Shown: piece by piece, positions 7,388 to 42,351 of the stretch
How positions within the stretch are numbered: the stretch's first letter is position 1
Layout of the letters: every line of letters begins with the position of its first letter
Assembly: GCA_964493865.1 (NCBI GenBank)
Contig: CAZBPS010000010.1
Coordinates: 17,051 to 81,050 of the forward strand
Reading direction: 5' to 3'
DNA length: 64,000 nucleotides
Origin: an uncultured Flavipsychrobacter sp.
GTDB taxonomy: Bacteria; Bacteroidota; Bacteroidia; Chitinophagales; Chitinophagaceae
Translations under genes and position numbers: made by a program
Notes under the pieces: generated by a model
Database searches by the model: none
Told to the model about the DNA's origin: nothing
Seen by the model: the letters and a program-made list of their open reading frames with translations, nothing else

Positions 7388-7519
7388 AAATATGACTGCC
7401 TGTAACTTGGTAAAACAATTGCTCACTCAACCTAATCGGGCAAAGTGCAGGGTAAAAAACAAACTATTTTCAGTCAAATTTTAATATTATGAAGTATCTT
7501 TCGGCTTTAAAATAGTTAT

Positions 7520-10345: not shown

Positions 10346-10373
10346 GTAGGGGCTGAAAATTTTCAGCCCCTGC
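10346..10373. repeat. GTAG-REP palindrome downstream of RAYT
   Basis: GTAGGGGCTGAAAATTTTCAGCCCCTGC, one mismatch to the perfect palindrome. Confidence 0.9.
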
Positions 10374-10447: not shown

Positions 10448-11077
10448 TTATTGTTTCCACAATCTATCGTCATTCCAGCTTTTAGCATTGTTGGTTATGT
10501 ACGTGGCAATTCGCAGATATGACTGTTCATCCCGAATAATATGATCATGGTAATTCCGCTGCCATATTTTTCTCTCCTGCGAAAATTCTGCCGGAATCTC
10601 GTTACGAAACCATTTTGTAACGCCGATTTTAAAACCCTTTACAATTGAACCGATTGAGCGTGGGATCATTTTTTGAAATTCGTGTTGTTTTGATTGTATT
10701 GGTGTTGTGTTCTTGCGTTGTACGAGGTGAAAATCTTCATGTAGGGGCTGAAAATTTTCAGCCCCTACATTGTTTATATCATTTATACCTGAATTAGCGG
10801 CCTGGCCCGATTGCAACTCGATAATGCCATGCACATGATTGGGCATTATGGTATGTTCATGCAATACTGCATTAGGGAAATGCTTCGGTATATCCAGCCA
10901 AAATTTCTCTGCAATGATACCTGCATCATTTAAAATCATTTCATCGTTTACAACTTCCCCAAACAAACATTCTCTATTGTGCGTGCAGACTGTAATAAAA
11001 TACAGCCCTTCCTTCGAATAGTCGTATCCTTTCAGACGGATAGATTTTCGATGATGATGTTTTTGATTATCGGTCAT
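10448..11077 (-). mobile_element. REP-associated tyrosine transposase (RAYT / TnpA-REP, Y1 HUH family)
   Basis: RKSIRLKGYDYS, YFITVCT, HUH motif MPNHVHGII, WQRNYHDHIIR, catalytic-Tyr helix YITNN; flanked by GTAG palindromes. Confidence 0.9.
10739..10770. repeat. Perfect 32-bp REP palindrome inside the RAYT CDS
   Basis: ATGTAGGGGCTGAAAATTTTCAGCCCCTACAT; encodes NVGAENFQPLH in frame. Confidence 0.9.
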
Positions 11078-11136
11078 TGTTCAATATTACAATTATTATT
11101 TTGGGGTGTGGTGTTGTAGGAACTGGAAAATGTTAC

Positions 11137-11164
11137 GTAGGGGCTGAAAATTTTCAGCCCCTAC
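11137..11164. repeat. GTAG-REP palindrome upstream of RAYT
   Basis: GTAGGGGCTGAAAATTTTCAGCCCCTAC, perfect 28-bp palindrome. Confidence 0.9.
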
Positions 11165-11240
11165 ATACCAAAAAAAATTCTGCCAATACCCCACCAAAAT
11201 AAAAACACCCTAATCTCACCAAACGCTTGCTGGGCGCAAC

Positions 11241-11279
11241 AACTATTTTCCGTCACGGTACAGTTACTGTACTGTGATG
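11241..11279. repeat. Dispersed hairpin element A, copy 1
   Basis: AACTATTTTC-CGTCACGGTACAG-TTA-CTGTACTGTGATG; similar to the reverse complement of 42313-42351. Confidence 0.7.
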
Positions 11280-11412
11280 CTTTTTTTATTTGGCTGGCAA
11301 AACCGTGTTTGCGAACTTTACATCGTTTCAGCTCCCGCTGCCTTACAAGTGGTAGTTGATACCTGTTCTTTGAATGATTGTATGAAAATTAGCACTGCAA
11401 CCGCCAAAAAAA

Positions 11413-11524
11413 GTGAGCAAGTATAGTGAGCAACGTTTGAGCAAGAAGTGAGCAACATTTTGAGTATAATTGTTTAATTATGAGTTGATTATGATTTTTT
11501 AGAGTTTTTTTCAAAAGTGAGCAA
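11413..11524 (+). repeat. Five-box GTGAGCAA element B, copy 1
   Basis: Boxes at 11413, 11426, 11437 (TTGAGCAA), 11448 and 11517, the last immediately before ATG 11526. Confidence 0.85.
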
Positions 11525-11525
11525 T

Positions 11526-11945
11526 ATGCAAAAACGGGTAACAGGTATAGGCGGCATCTTTTTCAAATGCGAAGACCCGGCAGCAGTGCGCGAATGGTAT
11601 GCCACGCACCTCGGCTTCAATACCGACCAGTATGGCACCTCCTTCGAGTGGCGTCATGCTGAGAAACCGGAAAGAAAAGGCCACACTGTATGGAGTACCT
11701 TCCCCATGGATACCAATTACTTTGCGCCCTCCGGCAAAGACTTTATGATAAACCTGCGCGTAGAAAACCTGGAATGGCTATTGGCAGAACTGAAAAAAGA
11801 AGGTATTGAACAAATCGGTGAAATGCAGGTGTATGAATATGGCAAGTTCGCCCATATTACTGACCCCGAGGGAAATAAGATAGAACTATGGGAACCAAAC
11901 GATGATGAATATGAAAAAATGGTGGAAGATAATGTGACAAAGTAG
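11526..11945 (+). CDS. VOC/glyoxalase family protein
   Basis: RVTGIGGIFFK, MINLRVENL, YGKFAHITDPEGNKIELWEP. Confidence 0.85.
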   Translation: MQKRVTGIGGIFFKCEDPAAVREWYATHLGFNTDQYGTSFEWRHAEKPERKGHTVWSTFPMDTNYFAPSGKDFMINLRVENLEWLLAELKKEGIEQIGEMQVYEYGKFAHITDPEGNKIELWEPNDDEYEKMVEDNVTK

Positions 11946-13075: not shown

Positions 13076-15916
13076 ATGCCGGAAAAGAAACTGTTTTTGC
13101 TTGATGCCTTTGCGCTCATATTTCGCGCCTACTATGCCCTGATACGTAACCCCAGGGTGACCAGTAAAGGAAAAAATACCAATGCCCAGTTCGGGTTTAC
13201 CTCTACCCTGCTCGACCTTATCAATAAGGAAAAGCCCACACACCTGGCAGTTGTGTTCGACACCTCTGCCCCTACCGAAAGGCATACTGACTTTGAAGCC
13301 TATAAAGCCAACCGCCAGGAAACCCCGGAAGACCTTTCGGCAGCAGTGCCCGATATAAAACGCATTATCAAAGGCTTTAACCTGCCCTGCCTTGAGCTGG
13401 ACGGATATGAGGCTGATGACATAATTGGCTCGCTGGCACTGGAAGCGGCGGACCTTGGCTACACCGTATATATGGTTACCCCCGATAAGGACTACGGGCA
13501 GATAGTGCGTGAGAAAGTGTTTATCTACAAACCCGCATCAGGCTTCAGCAACCTGGAGATACTGGGTGAAAAAGAGGTTTGCGCTAAGTGGGGTATCAAG
13601 CGTGTGGACCAAGTGGTAGATATGCTTGGCCTGATGGGGGATGCGGTAGATAATATACCCGGCATACCGGGAGTGGGTGAAAAGACCGCCGCCAAACTGC
13701 TTGCAGAGTATGACAACATAGAAAATATTCTTGCCAATGCCGACAAGATCAAGGGTGCGTTAGGCGAAAAGGTGCGTAACGGAAAAGACATGGCCCTGTT
13801 ATCCAAAAAACTGGCAACCATCATTACCAATGTGCCTGTGCCGTTCCATGAAGAGGATTTTAGGGTGAAAGAAAAGAATGTAGAAGCATTGACGGAAGTA
13901 TTCAATGAACTGGAGTTTAAAACTTTGGGCAAGAGAGTGCTTGGTGATAATGGCGTAGCGGCACCTGTCGCTACCGACCTCTTTGGTAATGCCATTGCAC
14001 AAAAGAGAGGGGCTACCACACAGCAACCTGCGGCCACCACCAATAACGAAACCACCACCTTGCCTGAAGAGCAGGCCGAACCAATACCGTCTAATGTTGC
14101 GACCATAGATCAGGTGCCTCATACCTATACTTTAGTGACGACGGAAACAGAAATTGATAACCTGCTGAGTGAACTTAGTAAGTATAAAGAAATTGCCTTT
14201 GATACAGAGACAACAGATATTGATCCGAACCTTGCCGACCTGGTAGGCATGAGCTTTAGTTTTGAAAAAGGCACCGGTTACTTTGTTTCGGTGCCAGCTG
14301 TAAGGGAGGCTGTAATCAAGGTACTGGAGCGGTTCCGGCCACTATTTGAAGACCCTGCAATACTGTGGGTTGGCCAGAATATAAAGTATGACATGATCAT
14401 GCTGAAATGGTATGGTTTCCGGCTGGCAGGCGATATTTATGATACCATGCTTGCCAATTATGTAATCGACCCTGATGGCAAGCGCAGCATGGATATGCTG
14501 AGCGTAAAATACCTTAATTATGAACCGGTATCTATTGAAACACTGATAGGAAAAAAAGGAAAGGGGCAGCTATCTATGCGGGACGCCCCGCTGGAGCAGG
14601 TGAAAGAATATGCCGCGGAAGATGCCGATGTAACACTGCAACTAAAAAAGGCTTTCGACCCGCTGCTTATTGAAAAGGAAGTAAACCGTGTATTTGAAGA
14701 AGTGGAGAACCCACTTGTACCTGTGCTCCTTGATATGGAGTACGAAGGTGTGGGCCTTGATGTAGATTTCTTACGGGAATATTCAAAAGAACTGGAAAAA
14801 GATATACGCCAGGCAGAAGAGAACATATACCGTCATGCGGGCGTAAATTTCAATATTGGGTCACCTAAGCAATTAGGCGAGGTATTGTTTGAAGTAATGA
14901 AAATAGATGCCGGGCAAAAGAAAACAAAGACCGGACAATATGCCACCGGGGAAGATATACTGCAAAAGCTACGCCACAAACACCAGGTAGTGGAGGATAT
15001 ACTTGCCTACCGGGAGCTGACGAAGCTGAAGAGTACTTACGTAGATTCATTACCGGGACTTATTAACCCGCGCACAGGGCGACTGCACACCAGCTACAAC
15101 CAGGCTGTAGCTGTAACAGGACGGCTGAGCAGCAATAACCCTAACCTGCAGAATATACCTATACGCACAGACCGCGGCCGCGAGATACGCAAAGCCTTCA
15201 TACCAAGAAATAAAGACTACCGCATTATCTCAGCCGACTATTCGCAAATAGAACTGCGCATAGTAGCAGCGATAAGCGGAGATGAGGCCATGATAGCGGC
15301 CTTTAAAGAAAATAAAGACATACATACAGCTACTGCTGCCAAAGTATATGGAGTAGAAGAAAAAGATGTAACAAAAGATATGAGGCGGGCCGCGAAGGCC
15401 GTGAACTTCGGTATCATATACGGGCAATCAGCATTCGGGCTGGCGGAGAATATCGGTGTAAGCCGCACGGAAGCAAAAACCATCATTGACAACTATTTTA
15501 CCCAATACCCGTCTATAAAGAAATACATGGATGGCTCTATAAATTTTGCCAAAGAGCATGGCTATGTGCAAACCGTTATGGGCCGGAAACGCTGGCTGAA
15601 GGATATATACTCGGCGAATTTCACCGTACGCGGATATGCAGAACGAAATGCCATCAATATGCCGATACAAGGCACAGCGGCTGATATGATAAAGCTGGCC
15701 ATGATAGCGATACACCGCGAACTGAAAGCGCAGAATTTTGGTACTAAAATGATTTTGCAGGTACATGACGAATTGGTATTTGACGTACCAGTAGGCGAAG
15801 AAGACAGAGTAAGGCCACTTATCAAAACGTGTATGGAAAATGCGATGAAGCTTCCCCACGATGTGCCCTCCAGTGTGGAGACAGGCATGGGTAATAACTG
15901 GCTGGAAGCCCATTGA
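13076..15916 (+). CDS. polA: DNA polymerase I
   Basis: 5'-3' exonuclease (YEADDIIG, GDAVDNIPG), 3'-5' exonuclease (FDTETT), polymerase motifs ADYSQIELR, KAVNFGIIYG, QVHDELVF. Confidence 0.99.
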   Translation: MPEKKLFLLDAFALIFRAYYALIRNPRVTSKGKNTNAQFGFTSTLLDLINKEKPTHLAVVFDTSAPTERHTDFEAYKANRQETPEDLSAAVPDIKRIIKGFNLPCLELDGYEADDIIGSLALEAADLGYTVYMVTPDKDYGQIVREKVFIYKPASGFSNLEILGEKEVCAKWGIKRVDQVVDMLGLMGDAVDNIPGIPGVGEKTAAKLLAEYDNIENILANADKIKGALGEKVRNGKDMALLSKKLATIITNVPVPFHEEDFRVKEKNVEALTEVFNELEFKTLGKRVLGDNGVAAPVATDLFGNAIAQKRGATTQQPAATTNNETTTLPEEQAEPIPSNVATIDQVPHTYTLVTTETEIDNLLSELSKYKEIAFDTETTDIDPNLADLVGMSFSFEKGTGYFVSVPAVREAVIKVLERFRPLFEDPAILWVGQNIKYDMIMLKWYGFRLAGDIYDTMLANYVIDPDGKRSMDMLSVKYLNYEPVSIETLIGKKGKGQLSMRDAPLEQVKEYAAEDADVTLQLKKAFDPLLIEKEVNRVFEEVENPLVPVLLDMEYEGVGLDVDFLREYSKELEKDIRQAEENIYRHAGVNFNIGSPKQLGEVLFEVMKIDAGQKKTKTGQYATGEDILQKLRHKHQVVEDILAYRELTKLKSTYVDSLPGLINPRTGRLHTSYNQAVAVTGRLSSNNPNLQNIPIRTDRGREIRKAFIPRNKDYRIISADYSQIELRIVAAISGDEAMIAAFKENKDIHTATAAKVYGVEEKDVTKDMRRAAKAVNFGIIYGQSAFGLAENIGVSRTEAKTIIDNYFTQYPSIKKYMDGSINFAKEHGYVQTVMGRKRWLKDIYSANFTVRGYAERNAINMPIQGTAADMIKLAMIAIHRELKAQNFGTKMILQVHDELVFDVPVGEEDRVRPLIKTCMENAMKLPHDVPSSVETGMGNNWLEAH

Positions 15917-26857: not shown

Positions 26858-27319
26858 TTATGCCGTAGCCGCCAATGGATAAACAGACGCTTCGTTCTTC
26901 AGCCAGAGGTCTATCGCTTTCTCCGCTGCTGCGTATTTTTCAAGAAACCTTGAATCCTCTATGTGAATGAGCTCATATGCCCTCATCAGGCCGCTGATGA
27001 CCGATGAATGGTCTTGCCCGCCAAAAAAAGCCGCGATTTGCTGCAACCTCACTTCGGGGAAATACATGCGTATAAAATGGGCTCCTATAAACCTCAGTTC
27101 TACCACATCGCGGGCCCTTGTTTTCATTTTATAACACATGGGGTCCATTCCGAGCGCAATGGCTATTTTATAAAGCATATGCTCCGGTGTTTTGATTGTG
27201 CCGTAGGTGGGGTACAGCATCACTGATACATTGATACCGGTTTTGTTCTTTATCGTCTGTTGTGCCGAGCGGGCTATGTGGCGCGCTGTTTTGATTCCTG
27301 TTTCCTGCCTGTTTTTCAT
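26858..27319 (-). CDS. Stand-alone DnaA C-terminal (domain IV) helix-turn-helix protein
   Basis: KTRARDVVELRFIGAHFIRMYFPEVRLQQIAAFFGGQDHSSVISGL resembles the DnaA domain IV signature (...[20 protein letters not shown]); no AAA+ domain. Confidence 0.8.
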   Translation of the reverse strand: MKNRQETGIKTARHIARSAQQTIKNKTGINVSVMLYPTYGTIKTPEHMLYKIAIALGMDPMCYKMKTRARDVVELRFIGAHFIRMYFPEVRLQQIAAFFGGQDHSSVISGLMRAYELIHIEDSRFLEKYAAAEKAIDLWLKNEASVYPLAATA

Positions 27320-41267: not shown

Positions 41268-41996
41268 TTACATCAAACACCGCTTATACAACTGCACCAC
41301 ATTCTCCAATCCATAATATAGTGCATCGGCAATGAGGGCGTGGCCTATGGACACTTCAAGCAAATTCGGGATTGATTGTTTGAAAAATTTCAGGTTGTCC
41401 CTATCGAGGTCGTGGCCGGCATTGAGACCAAGGCCGTGATGCATGGCCACTTGTGCGGCCCTTACGTAGGGCGCTACAGCCACGTCTTTATCGGTGTGGT
41501 AATTGCGGGCATAATCTTCGGTGTAGAGTTCCACCCTGTCGGTGCCTGTATCGGCGGCGGCGGCCACCATACGTTCCACGGGATCGGTGAAGATGGAAAC
41601 ACGGATGCCTGCATTTTTAAATACCTCTATTATACCGCGCAGATAGTTTTGTTCTGCAACGGTATCCCAGCCATGATCGGAGGTGAGCTGGCCTTGTGCA
41701 TCCGGCACCAGCGTTACTTGGGCGGGCTTCACATCGAGCACCAGTTGCACAAATTTATCCTCTTTGGGGTTGCCTTCTATGTTGAATTCAGTCCCGATAG
41801 CTATCGGGATTATTCTACTGATTTCCCTTACATCGCTGTACCTGATATGCCTTTCATCGGGGCGGGGATGAACGGTGATGCCATCAGCGCCGAACTTCTG
41901 GCAGTCTATAGCAGCCTGCAGCACATTGGGGTTATTGCCGCCGCGGCTGTTGCGCAGGGTGGCTATTTTGTTGATGTTTACAGAGAGTTTGGTCAT
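41268..41996 (-). CDS. pdxJ: Pyridoxine 5'-phosphate synthase
   Basis: LSVNINKIATLRN, ITVHPRPDERHI, EFNIEG, VTLVP, VELYT, NAGHDL, EVSIGHALI. Confidence 0.97.
   Translation of the reverse strand: MTKLSVNINKIATLRNSRGGNNPNVLQAAIDCQKFGADGITVHPRPDERHIRYSDVREISRIIPIAIGTEFNIEGNPKEDKFVQLVLDVKPAQVTLVPDAQGQLTSDHGWDTVAEQNYLRGIIEVFKNAGIRVSIFTDPVERMVAAAADTGTDRVELYTEDYARNYHTDKDVAVAPYVRAAQVAMHHGLGLNAGHDLDRDNLKFFKQSIPNLLEVSIGHALIADALYYGLENVVQLYKRCLM
41792..41809. repeat. Perfect 18-bp palindrome within pdxJ
   Basis: TCCCGATAGCTATCGGGA; encodes part of IPIAIG in frame. Confidence 0.85.
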
Positions 41997-42001
41997 GGTT
42001 A

Positions 42002-42116
42002 TTGCTCACTTTTTTGAAAAAAAACGTTGTTTTTTTATAATCTCCTGATAATTAGTGAGTTGCGCGAAAAACATTGCTCACTTCTTGCTCAAACGCTGCT
42101 CACTAAACTTGCTCAC
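42002..42116 (-). repeat. Five-box GTGAGCAA element B, copy 2
   Basis: + strand boxes: TTGCTCAC at 42002, 42074 and 42109; TTGCTCAA at 42085; CTGCTCAC at 42096. Spacing in the four-box block is the same as in copy 1. Confidence 0.85.
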
Positions 42117-42295
42117 TTCTTTCGTGAGCTGTGTTACCCAGAACATCCCCCTACCCCCTTCGCCAATTCACAAGGCCAACGCTTAAGGGGGAATACGCCG
42201 GTACGCTACTTCGCCTGTATACCTCTTTGGCAAACTTTCTGTAACGGTGTAAAGTTCTGTATTGCAGGGGTGAACGCAAAATATTTATGACATGG

Positions 42296-42351
42296 CGGTA
42301 CAGTTAGTGTACCGTCGTGGTACAGTAACTGTACCATGATGGAAAATGGTT
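42296..42351. repeat. Dispersed hairpin element A, copy 2 (with an extra half copy)
   Basis: CGGTACAGTTAGTGTACCG overlapping CGTCGTGGTACAG-TAA-CTGTACCATGATG-GAAAATGGTT. Confidence 0.7.

Follow-up and report, generated by a model that had tools for sequence, protein, structure and literature searches.

Described relatives of the cassettes

Among the dispersed repeats of bacteria, the nearest described counterpart of the element reported here appears to be BrickBuilt, a MITE (miniature inverted-repeat transposable element) from Porphyromonas gingivalis, which is strictly intergenic, is built from a leader, variable 23-nt tandem repeats and a tail, and is present in ~19 copies and in partial forms (PMC4596501). 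BrickBuilt lies beside unrelated housekeeping genes, has promoter activity and small terminal inverted repeats, and its repeats are contiguous and unspaced (PMC4596501). Our subject is a family of cassettes, two copies of which lie upstream of a VOC gene and of pdxJ in a 64,000-nucleotide stretch of DNA (the window) from an uncultured Flavipsychrobacter sp. (contig CAZBPS010000010.1, positions 17,051 to 81,050). Read 5′ to 3′, a cassette comprises a terminator-like hairpin with a T-run, a Bacteroidota-type promoter, a leader and at least one T module, followed by the gene. A T module in turn opens with two to eight copies of a short word at 11-bp phase; after an AT-rich spacer whose length is fixed, the word recurs once more. 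By description the cassettes are thereby set apart from BrickBuilt, as they have no terminal inverted repeats, their 8-mers recur at an 11-bp period, the word returns ~71 bp further on, and several word classes exist.

Other known systems share single aspects of this layout. The pneumococcal BOX element (boxA-boxB(n)-boxC) is three-part with variable internal units, is dispersed between genes, can alter the expression of its neighbours and has predicted stable RNA folds. The T3 subtype, our name for a GTGAGCAA-box array with its spacer and distal box, is modular in the same manner, but its folding z-score is ~0, and BOX has no matching of array and distal words. In ParR-parC of plasmid R1 and in iteron and ribbon-helix-helix arrays, binding to 11-bp direct repeats is cooperative, the repeats stand in two groups on either side of an AT-rich segment that bears a promoter, and the array thus acts as an operator. 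These are single loci beside the gene of their own binder, whereas the cassettes occur in dozens of copies with no adjacent binder, partition or replication genes. Pho boxes (PhoB/OmpR type) are 22-bp units of two 11-bp direct repeats, each with 7–8 conserved bases and an A/T-rich linker, and one to three units stand beside the core promoter. The double box of the T1 subtype, directly 5′ of a TAATTTTG box that is −7-like, resembles this arrangement, although pho boxes have no distal site at +70.

TAACTGA heptamers of Beggiatoaceae, Cyanobacteria and Bacteroidetes form sets of two to six direct repeats immediately upstream of the start codons of unrelated genes, essential ones among them, in a patchy range of lineages (PMC4679880). 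Those repeats are contiguous, differ in sequence and come without a spacer, a distal copy or a common 5′ promoter/leader unit. Putative mobile promoters, that is, highly similar upstream regions before non-homologous genes, have been taken to suggest rewiring (PMC3575422). They are a statistical category, in contrast to the cassettes, which are a concrete instance of promoter reuse, have a defined modular anatomy and are swapped at orthologous loci. A literature search for the box words returned no match. The cassette family is a set of modular dispersed intergenic repeats of unusual, well-defined anatomy, and genome comparison indicates that it has multiplied and been exchanged between loci within a subclade of the Flavipsychrobacter-like genus (Bacteroidota). 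For this comparison the genome that contains the window (G000, 5.05 Mb) was set beside G001, G004, G013, G240 and further congeners; G240 is the closest relative, and its contig C3 is syntenic with the window.

Anatomy of the two window copies

Upstream of the VOC gene (Glyoxalase by Pfam), a T3 array on the + strand (11413–11455) reads GTGAGCAA, GTGAGCAA, TTGAGCAA, GTGAGCAA, with boxes that begin at 11413, 11426, 11437 (the TTGAGCAA box, one mismatch) and 11448, a spacing of 13, 11 and 11 bp. The AT-rich spacer that follows (11456–11516) contains TTGATTATGA at ~11485–11494 and a T7 run at 11505–11511, and the distal GTGAGCAA box (11517–11524) ends one base 5′ of the VOC ATG at 11526. Upstream of pdxJ, whose product is PdxJ by Pfam, the array lies on the − strand (42074–42116) and reads GTGAGCAA, GTGAGCAG, TTGAGCAA, GTGAGCAA; its boxes begin at 42116, 42103 (GTGAGCAG), 42092 (TTGAGCAA) and 42081, again at 13, 11 and 11 bp. 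Here the spacer (42010–42073) contains TAATTATCAG and a T8 run (42024–42017), and the distal GTGAGCAA box (42002–42009) is located five bases 5′ of the pdxJ ATG at 41996.

An earlier sequence-only reading of the window had described two copies of four boxes at this spacing with a fifth box about 70 bp on, near the start codon. The arrangement is confirmed: the distal box follows the last box of the array at 69 bp in the VOC copy and at 72 bp in the pdxJ copy. The near identity of the two four-box blocks, also remarked upon in that reading, amounts to 43/45 positions of the 45-nt blocks (95.6%), and the likeness between the loci reaches ~200 bp further 5′, into a common hairpin and promoter unit. 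Its description of diverged spacers is likewise accurate for the subtype at large, as T3 spacer sequences vary widely while keeping small blocks.

It is the clustering of the boxes, rather than their frequency, that goes beyond chance. With up to one mismatch the box 8-mer occurs 65 times in the window against 54.7 expected, without overall enrichment, whereas clusters of at least two exact boxes number only six in 5.05 Mb. The three-box pattern has 15 matches in this genome; the same pattern with its sequence reversed, used as a background control over 31 genomes, has none. Isolated exact 8-mers are found at three positions in the window, where ~2 are expected from its length. The lone TTGCTCAC to which the earlier reading had drawn attention at 7419 is indeed present, but its occurrence is at chance level.

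A dispersed family with matched words

To speak of an element upstream of two unrelated genes, as that reading did, is an undercount. This genome has ~11 T3 copies: a fuzzy search revealed eight loci beyond the window pair, in the layout of array, ~63-bp spacer, T-run and AAAGTGnGCAAT, and a later search an eleventh copy. The genes behind T3 comprise VOC, pdxJ, atpD, metK, a Metallophos_2 phosphoesterase, a PAP2-like membrane protein, nnr, an ABC ATPase and a NadB-type oxidase, and one copy with eight boxes sits between convergent genes (uvrC and a TIR-domain gene). T3-type arrays number 9–22 in each of three further species of the genus.

The geometry of T3 was measured on 48 copies from four genomes. 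Arrays hold two to eight boxes; of 133 intervals between boxes, 112 measure 11 bp, and every box terminates in an A-tract that recurs each 11 bp. The distal box follows the last array box at 71 bp in 11 copies, 72 in 5 and 73 in 3, with 69 at VOC; the longer distance classes arise because the last array box is degenerate. Despite their divergence the spacers share consensus blocks, namely cACAAC, a central TGAttATCA, aTTAyGa and the T7 run. Directly 3′ of the array, about half of the T3 copies have a T-rich −7-like stretch and the others an A-run, and the T7 run plus G fits 7/8 promoter positions in only some copies.

T3 is one of several subtypes, delimited by BLAST coverage, of a T-module family with ~90 modules in this genome. 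T1 (~60 copies) has AGTGCGCAAATAGTGCGCAAAAA, often followed directly by TAATTTTG, and 70 bp on, CCCAAAAAAGTGTGCAAAAA. In T2 (~23 copies), ATGCGCAA boxes number three or four and are accompanied by a C-run with AAAATGCGCAAAA. In G013, T4 presents three TGTTCAGTAA boxes and a distal TGTTCAGTAA, upstream of ribB as well as at the pdxJ orthologue. T5 is made of GGTATAAnTATACC palindromes that recur each 21 bp, and its distal TATACC lies 94–95 bp on. Its TATACC boxes are perfect 14-bp palindromes at two-turn (21 bp) phase, and a palindromic box at two-turn phase is the usual form of a dimer operator. Modules also form trains (T5-T3, T2-T1 and T1-T3).

Across these subtypes the array word predicts the distal word, the words including TGCGCAA, TGTTCAGTAA and TATACC. 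A distal TATACC at 94–95 bp accompanies 14/21 TATACC arrays compared to 10/131 TGnGCAA arrays (p=6e-9). Conversely, a distal TGnGCAA, with a peak near 70 bp, accompanies 41/131 TGnGCAA arrays and 0/21 TATACC arrays (p=0.001). Within the TGnGCAA class the fourth base is variable.

The modules are also oriented. The nearest long downstream open reading frame is co-oriented with the module in 61 and opposite in 23 of 84 cases (p=4e-5), and T3 modules are co-oriented with the next gene in 9/10. The positions of the block are therefore related to gene starts, and it does not correspond to a known MITE or repetitive extragenic palindromic (REP) end. The distal word of several T1 and T3 copies directly adjoins the start codon (e.g. 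ruvB, pdxJ and VOC). It is often 0–10 nt from the ATG, though in many copies 25–200 nt away, and at metK, atpD and nnr a separate TAnnTTTG-like box intervenes between module and gene.

Conservation and turnover among relatives

The T3 module of pdxJ is orthologous in G240. Between the two genomes its five boxes (array and distal) are identical at 39/40 positions, compared with 157/239 (66%) of third codon positions in the gene (p=7.5e-6), while the inter-box and tail bases agree at 10/16 and the spacer at 52/64. At the VOC locus, G240 has only a 77-nt remnant of the gene with an in-frame stop (contig C3 ~15045–15125; locus L153, 7045–7121). The array before this remnant has gained or lost one 11-bp unit relative to G000 and agrees at 20/32 positions (p=0.001 vs the pdxJ array), with T-run and distal box intact. 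The two loci taken together show box words that, judging from their conservation, appear to matter where the gene is alive. The gene upstream of the VOC remnant in G240 matches the VOC neighbour in G013 and G018, so that kbl and the RAYT gene beside the window VOC reflect a local rearrangement.

Elsewhere turnover is rapid. Twelve congeners have no array before pdxJ and carry a plain TAnnTTTG box 4–25 bp 5′ of the ATG. The atpD, metK and ABC genes have no module in G240, with coding sequences 90–98% identical, and yfcE in G240 retains the T-run and distal word only. At nadB, T3 in this genome corresponds to T5 in G240 behind a conserved 5′ unit, and the loci with T3 in G240 have T2, T5, T1 or no module in this genome. 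Among ~17 T3-bearing genes of G013, ~8 have some module in this genome, mostly of another type; fabI and ffh likewise differ from G013 in module presence. Sites shared at orthologous genes are those of nnr, where T3 is retained in four species, and of pdxJ (G000 and G240), the remainder having a swapped word class or none. The T1 double box is found in 15/41 genomes of the genus, in 1 to 113 copies, and even the closest relatives differ widely. The comparison shows modules that have been exchanged between loci.

The shared 5′ unit

Both window copies, and most modules, are located 100–300 bp 3′ of an abundant 5′ unit, which consists of CTCAAACCCGCGCCC followed by one or two GGTACAGTnACTGTACC hairpins and a T-run, scored as terminator-like. 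The common hairpin is present within 800 bp upstream of 77/93 modules in this genome, and its palindrome occurs ~95–117 times genome-wide. At VOC the hairpin (11251–11288, + strand) is an inverted repeat with a 13-bp stem around GGTACAGTTACTGTAC and then a T7 run, terminator-like in form; at pdxJ the unit (42291–42342, − strand) is a doublet of GGTACAGTnACTGTACC hairpins. These hairpins are REP-like in form only. A promoter-like site comes next, TTTG-N20-GAACTTTA at VOC (11289–11320, + strand) and TTTG-N19-GAACTTTA at pdxJ (42250–42280, − strand), the latter kept in G240 and G013. The motif TTTG-N19/20-GAACTTTA has 69 oriented copies with a spacing of 19–20 bp, and we take it to fit the −33/−7 promoter layout of Bacteroidota; G001 and G004 have TACCTTTG at the corresponding position.

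The leader of the VOC cassette (11327–11373, + strand) has a small hairpin (CAGC-tccc-GCTG) and then GTTCTTTGA, which is boxA-like. A leader of this kind is present in 48/69 5′ units: the stems of the hairpin covary, its loop is A-rich, and G[CT]TCTTTGA and next TTGCTTTGTG follow it. It presumably resembles the boxB-boxA-boxC of rRNA operons, with a boxA like GCTCTTTAACAA. REP-like hairpins are also frequent between leader and modules.

Taken by itself, the hairpin and promoter unit (window 11251–11320 and 42250–42342) has ~70–117 copies genome-wide and opens nearly every cassette, and the gene upstream of it is co-oriented in about two thirds of cases. The boxB/boxA-like leader precedes ~50 protein-coding genes. 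Tandem heptamers (CTTACGA/CTTATGA; CTACTTT) of up to ~20 units are seen between leader and T modules, for example at C7:206758+ and C1:390024-.

Tests of RNA, mobile-element and replicon identity

A search of the whole window against Rfam gave no family at gathering thresholds, and with E up to 1 only spurious matches of miRNA models on palindromes. RNA folding of the stretch delimited by the last array box and the distal box gave no signal vs shuffled controls (mean z = −0.04, 41 modules). RNA pairing between self-complementary boxes is possible for TGCGCA and excluded for T3 and T4. Mini-reading frames in the array (GTG AGC AAC nnn TGA) were rejected as an automatic product of the 11-nt period, and they are absent from the other word classes.

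In being short, non-coding, multi-copy and intergenic, the cassettes have MITE-like traits. Neither the block nor the cassette is bounded by terminal inverted repeats in both window copies; those detected there are internal hairpins and, in one copy, an A-run/T-run pair. At loci that differ in module presence, divergence or rearrangement of the flanks leaves no definable junctions or target-site duplications. A link to RAYT/REP was discarded, since the only RAYT has its own, different palindrome, GTAGGGGCTGAAAATTTTCAGCCCCTAC, and the box array is non-palindromic. The presumed likeness of AGTGCGCAAAT to the XerC arm of E. coli dif was also set aside, the arrays being direct repeats without the 11-6-11 inverted layout.

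No plasmid similarity was found, nor any rep gene near the modules, whose neighbours are housekeeping genes. DnaA boxes (TTATCCACA or TGTGGATAA, ≤1 mismatch) are present in 9–10/18 modules of G001 and G004 (L054–L070), where 0.008 are expected per copy, at offset 11 (forward) or 13 (reverse) past the array. They are absent from all 30 G000/G013 copies. A DnaA box at a fixed offset in either orientation argues for a property of the DNA.

Proposed mechanism and alternatives

We postulate, tentatively and with somewhat less than even confidence, that the elements are exchangeable promoter/operator cassettes, bound cooperatively by putative DNA-binding proteins. The words would serve as operators, each word class being recognised by a sequence-specific DNA-binding protein of its own specificity. 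Such a protein would assemble cooperatively along the phased array and make a further contact with the distal word, at the 5′ end of the gene. Between the two, the AT-rich spacer and the TTGATnATCAA palindrome at its centre would be bent, and the complex would govern how much transcription begins at, or runs into, the gene. Whole modules swapped between loci would then rewire housekeeping genes among few regulators. This proposal draws on features seen directly in the genomes (architecture, phasing, fixed distance, word matching, orientation bias, conservation of words at a live gene, and turnover), from which we infer the steps of protein binding, action on DNA and direction of effect. Cooperative binding to helically phased repeats had already been suggested in the sequence-only reading; the 11-bp phase, the distal box fixed at 71–73 bp, the conservation of the boxes and the offset of the DnaA boxes agree with that suggestion. 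The element is no private operator of two genes, as the cassettes form a dispersed family of fast turnover. Doubtful, in our estimation, is a wider version of the proposal: that each T module ties its gene to one of several word-specific regulators (TGnGCAA, TGTTCAGTAA, TATACC) and is swapped in place between close relatives, rewiring pdxJ, nadB, metF and nnr, with boxB/boxA antitermination on ~50 leaders. It would amount to a mobile regulatory layer not described in bacteria.

A number of points weigh against operators of this kind. The GTGAGCAA box is non-palindromic, and about a quarter of the modules do not face a gene. The 11-bp phase and the identity of words within an array could stem from tandem duplication, and the high identity of boxes between species could be due to gene conversion among copies. 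A range of 0–113 copies between species is more like that of a selfish repeat than that of a regulon. By eye, the anchored alignment of T3 spacers contains no consistent TTTG-N19-TAnnTTTG promoter; transcription may hence begin only upstream, which would place the module in the 5′ untranslated region and favour a role in RNA. A stand-alone DnaA domain IV protein, considered as binder, was rejected because it occurs in 39/41 genomes regardless of the elements.

Control at the RNA level is rather unlikely in our judgement, but it has a coherent form: array and distal word would lie in a long unstructured 5′ untranslated region, where an RNA-binding protein or an anti-word small RNA covers the start in the manner of TRAP or CsrA. 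The upstream promoter and boxA-like leader imply read-through of a long untranslated leader, the modules are strand-specific relative to genes, an unstructured region suits a single-strand binding platform, and the distal word is 0–10 nt from the ATG at VOC, at pdxJ here and in G013, and in several G013 and T1 copies. Moreover, TAACTGA repeat sets near start codons elsewhere have been read as RNA-level (PMC4679880). The distal word is nonetheless 25–200 nt from the ATG in many other copies, with the separate TAnnTTTG-like box between at metK, atpD and nnr, and a distance fixed at 71 ± 1 nt is unneeded on a flexible RNA. Features of a DNA type are the DnaA boxes, which occur in either orientation, and the TATACC boxes, palindromic and at 21-bp phase; no anti-word cluster able to form a small RNA was found, as every cluster is itself an element. 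We regard it as unlikely, too, that the family consists of modular repeats, selfish or neutral, of the BrickBuilt or BOX kind, the array being a minisatellite without a dedicated binder. Words would be kept alike by slippage and gene conversion, and effects on genes would be incidental to the promoter carried, the A-rich leader or bending by A-tracts. Such a repeat would account for the span of 0–113 copies with different subtypes expanded in different species, for module presence and type that differ at orthologous loci despite 90–98% coding identity, for arrays of two to eight boxes and the single 11-bp unit gained or lost between G000 and G240, for copies between convergent genes and for A-tract-ended boxes each 11 bp; BrickBuilt provides a precedent in Bacteroidota (PMC4596501). 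It would not explain why the distal word, which is outside the tandem array, matches it in each of three unrelated classes of word, at a fixed distance particular to the class, or why inter-box bases diverge at a neutral-like rate and boxes do not. The decay of the array where the gene is dead, the orientation bias, the abutment on start codons and the nnr module kept in four species are also at odds with it.

Two further explanations concern the movement or origin of the modules. The words may be sites for a recombinase or transposase that moves T modules (arm-type sites or multi-site transposon ends) and so mark both borders, an explanation that we consider improbable. In-place swaps that leave 5′ unit and gene unchanged (nadB, pdxJ, metF), the occurrence of modules in trains, the word at both borders and a central AT-rich palindrome that could be the site of a bending protein are all compatible with it. 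However, there are no terminal inverted repeats and no associated transposase or integrase, the only Y1/RAYT gene having another REP, and yfcE of G240, with T-run and distal word only, fits a retained promoter-proximal part better than a lost border. Least probable is that the modules are iteron-type, origin-like or initiator-titrating sites, acting as decoys or left as relics of a plasmid or phage replicon. The iteron-like array at 11/22 bp, the AT-rich spacer and the DnaA boxes of G001 and G004 recall an origin, as do TGTGCAATTAA arrays (three boxes, an AT-rich stretch and two boxes) in two other families of the order. Yet the chromosomal copies, dozens in number, are directed towards gene starts, with no rep gene nearby and no plasmid similarity, and 0/30 G000/G013 copies have a DnaA box.

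Should the words be operators, the cassettes would represent natural regulatory evolution by cassette exchange, in which sister species carry different arrays at the same housekeeping gene while the flanking promoter unit and the gene stay put, and promoter mobility would become experimentally tractable. They would also point to new DNA- or RNA-binding specificities in Bacteroidota, a phylum whose promoter and translation signals are atypical. The shared 5′ unit suggests that dozens of protein-coding leaders make use of rrn-style antitermination. Were the modules only selfish repeats, they would still serve as markers of strain differences, and identical upstream motifs before unrelated genes need not then mean a regulon.

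Neighbouring genes and related arrays

The only RAYT/IS200-like gene in the genome is in the window (10448–11077, − strand; Pfam Y1_Tnp). Its palindrome GTAGGGGCTGAAAATTTTCAGCCCCTAC occurs near 10346, 10740 and 11131–11170, bracketing the gene and inside it, and has only 6 copies genome-wide. At 26858–27319 (− strand) lies the gene of the stand-alone DnaA domain IV protein, which has counterparts of 44–90% identity in 39/41 genomes of the genus, a conservation that marks it as a stable gene of the host and not as a prophage remnant peculiar to one strain.

Outside the window, a full cassette (hairpin, promoter, leader, CTTACGA repeats and T1) at C1 ~630,000–631,500 (− strand) lies 81 nt 5′ of a gene pair for an OmpR-family regulator and a histidine kinase. 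The regulator behind this T1 module is a possible candidate for a binder of 11-bp direct repeats, although the adjacency could be chance. In two other families of the order, G020 (L149, L150) and G039 (L151) have three TGTGCAATTAA boxes, an AT-rich stretch of ~80 bp and the same word twice more. These arrays adjoin the 3′ ends of AlbA_2/HTH-type genes, and L150 additionally has four TTCCGAATTTG repeats.

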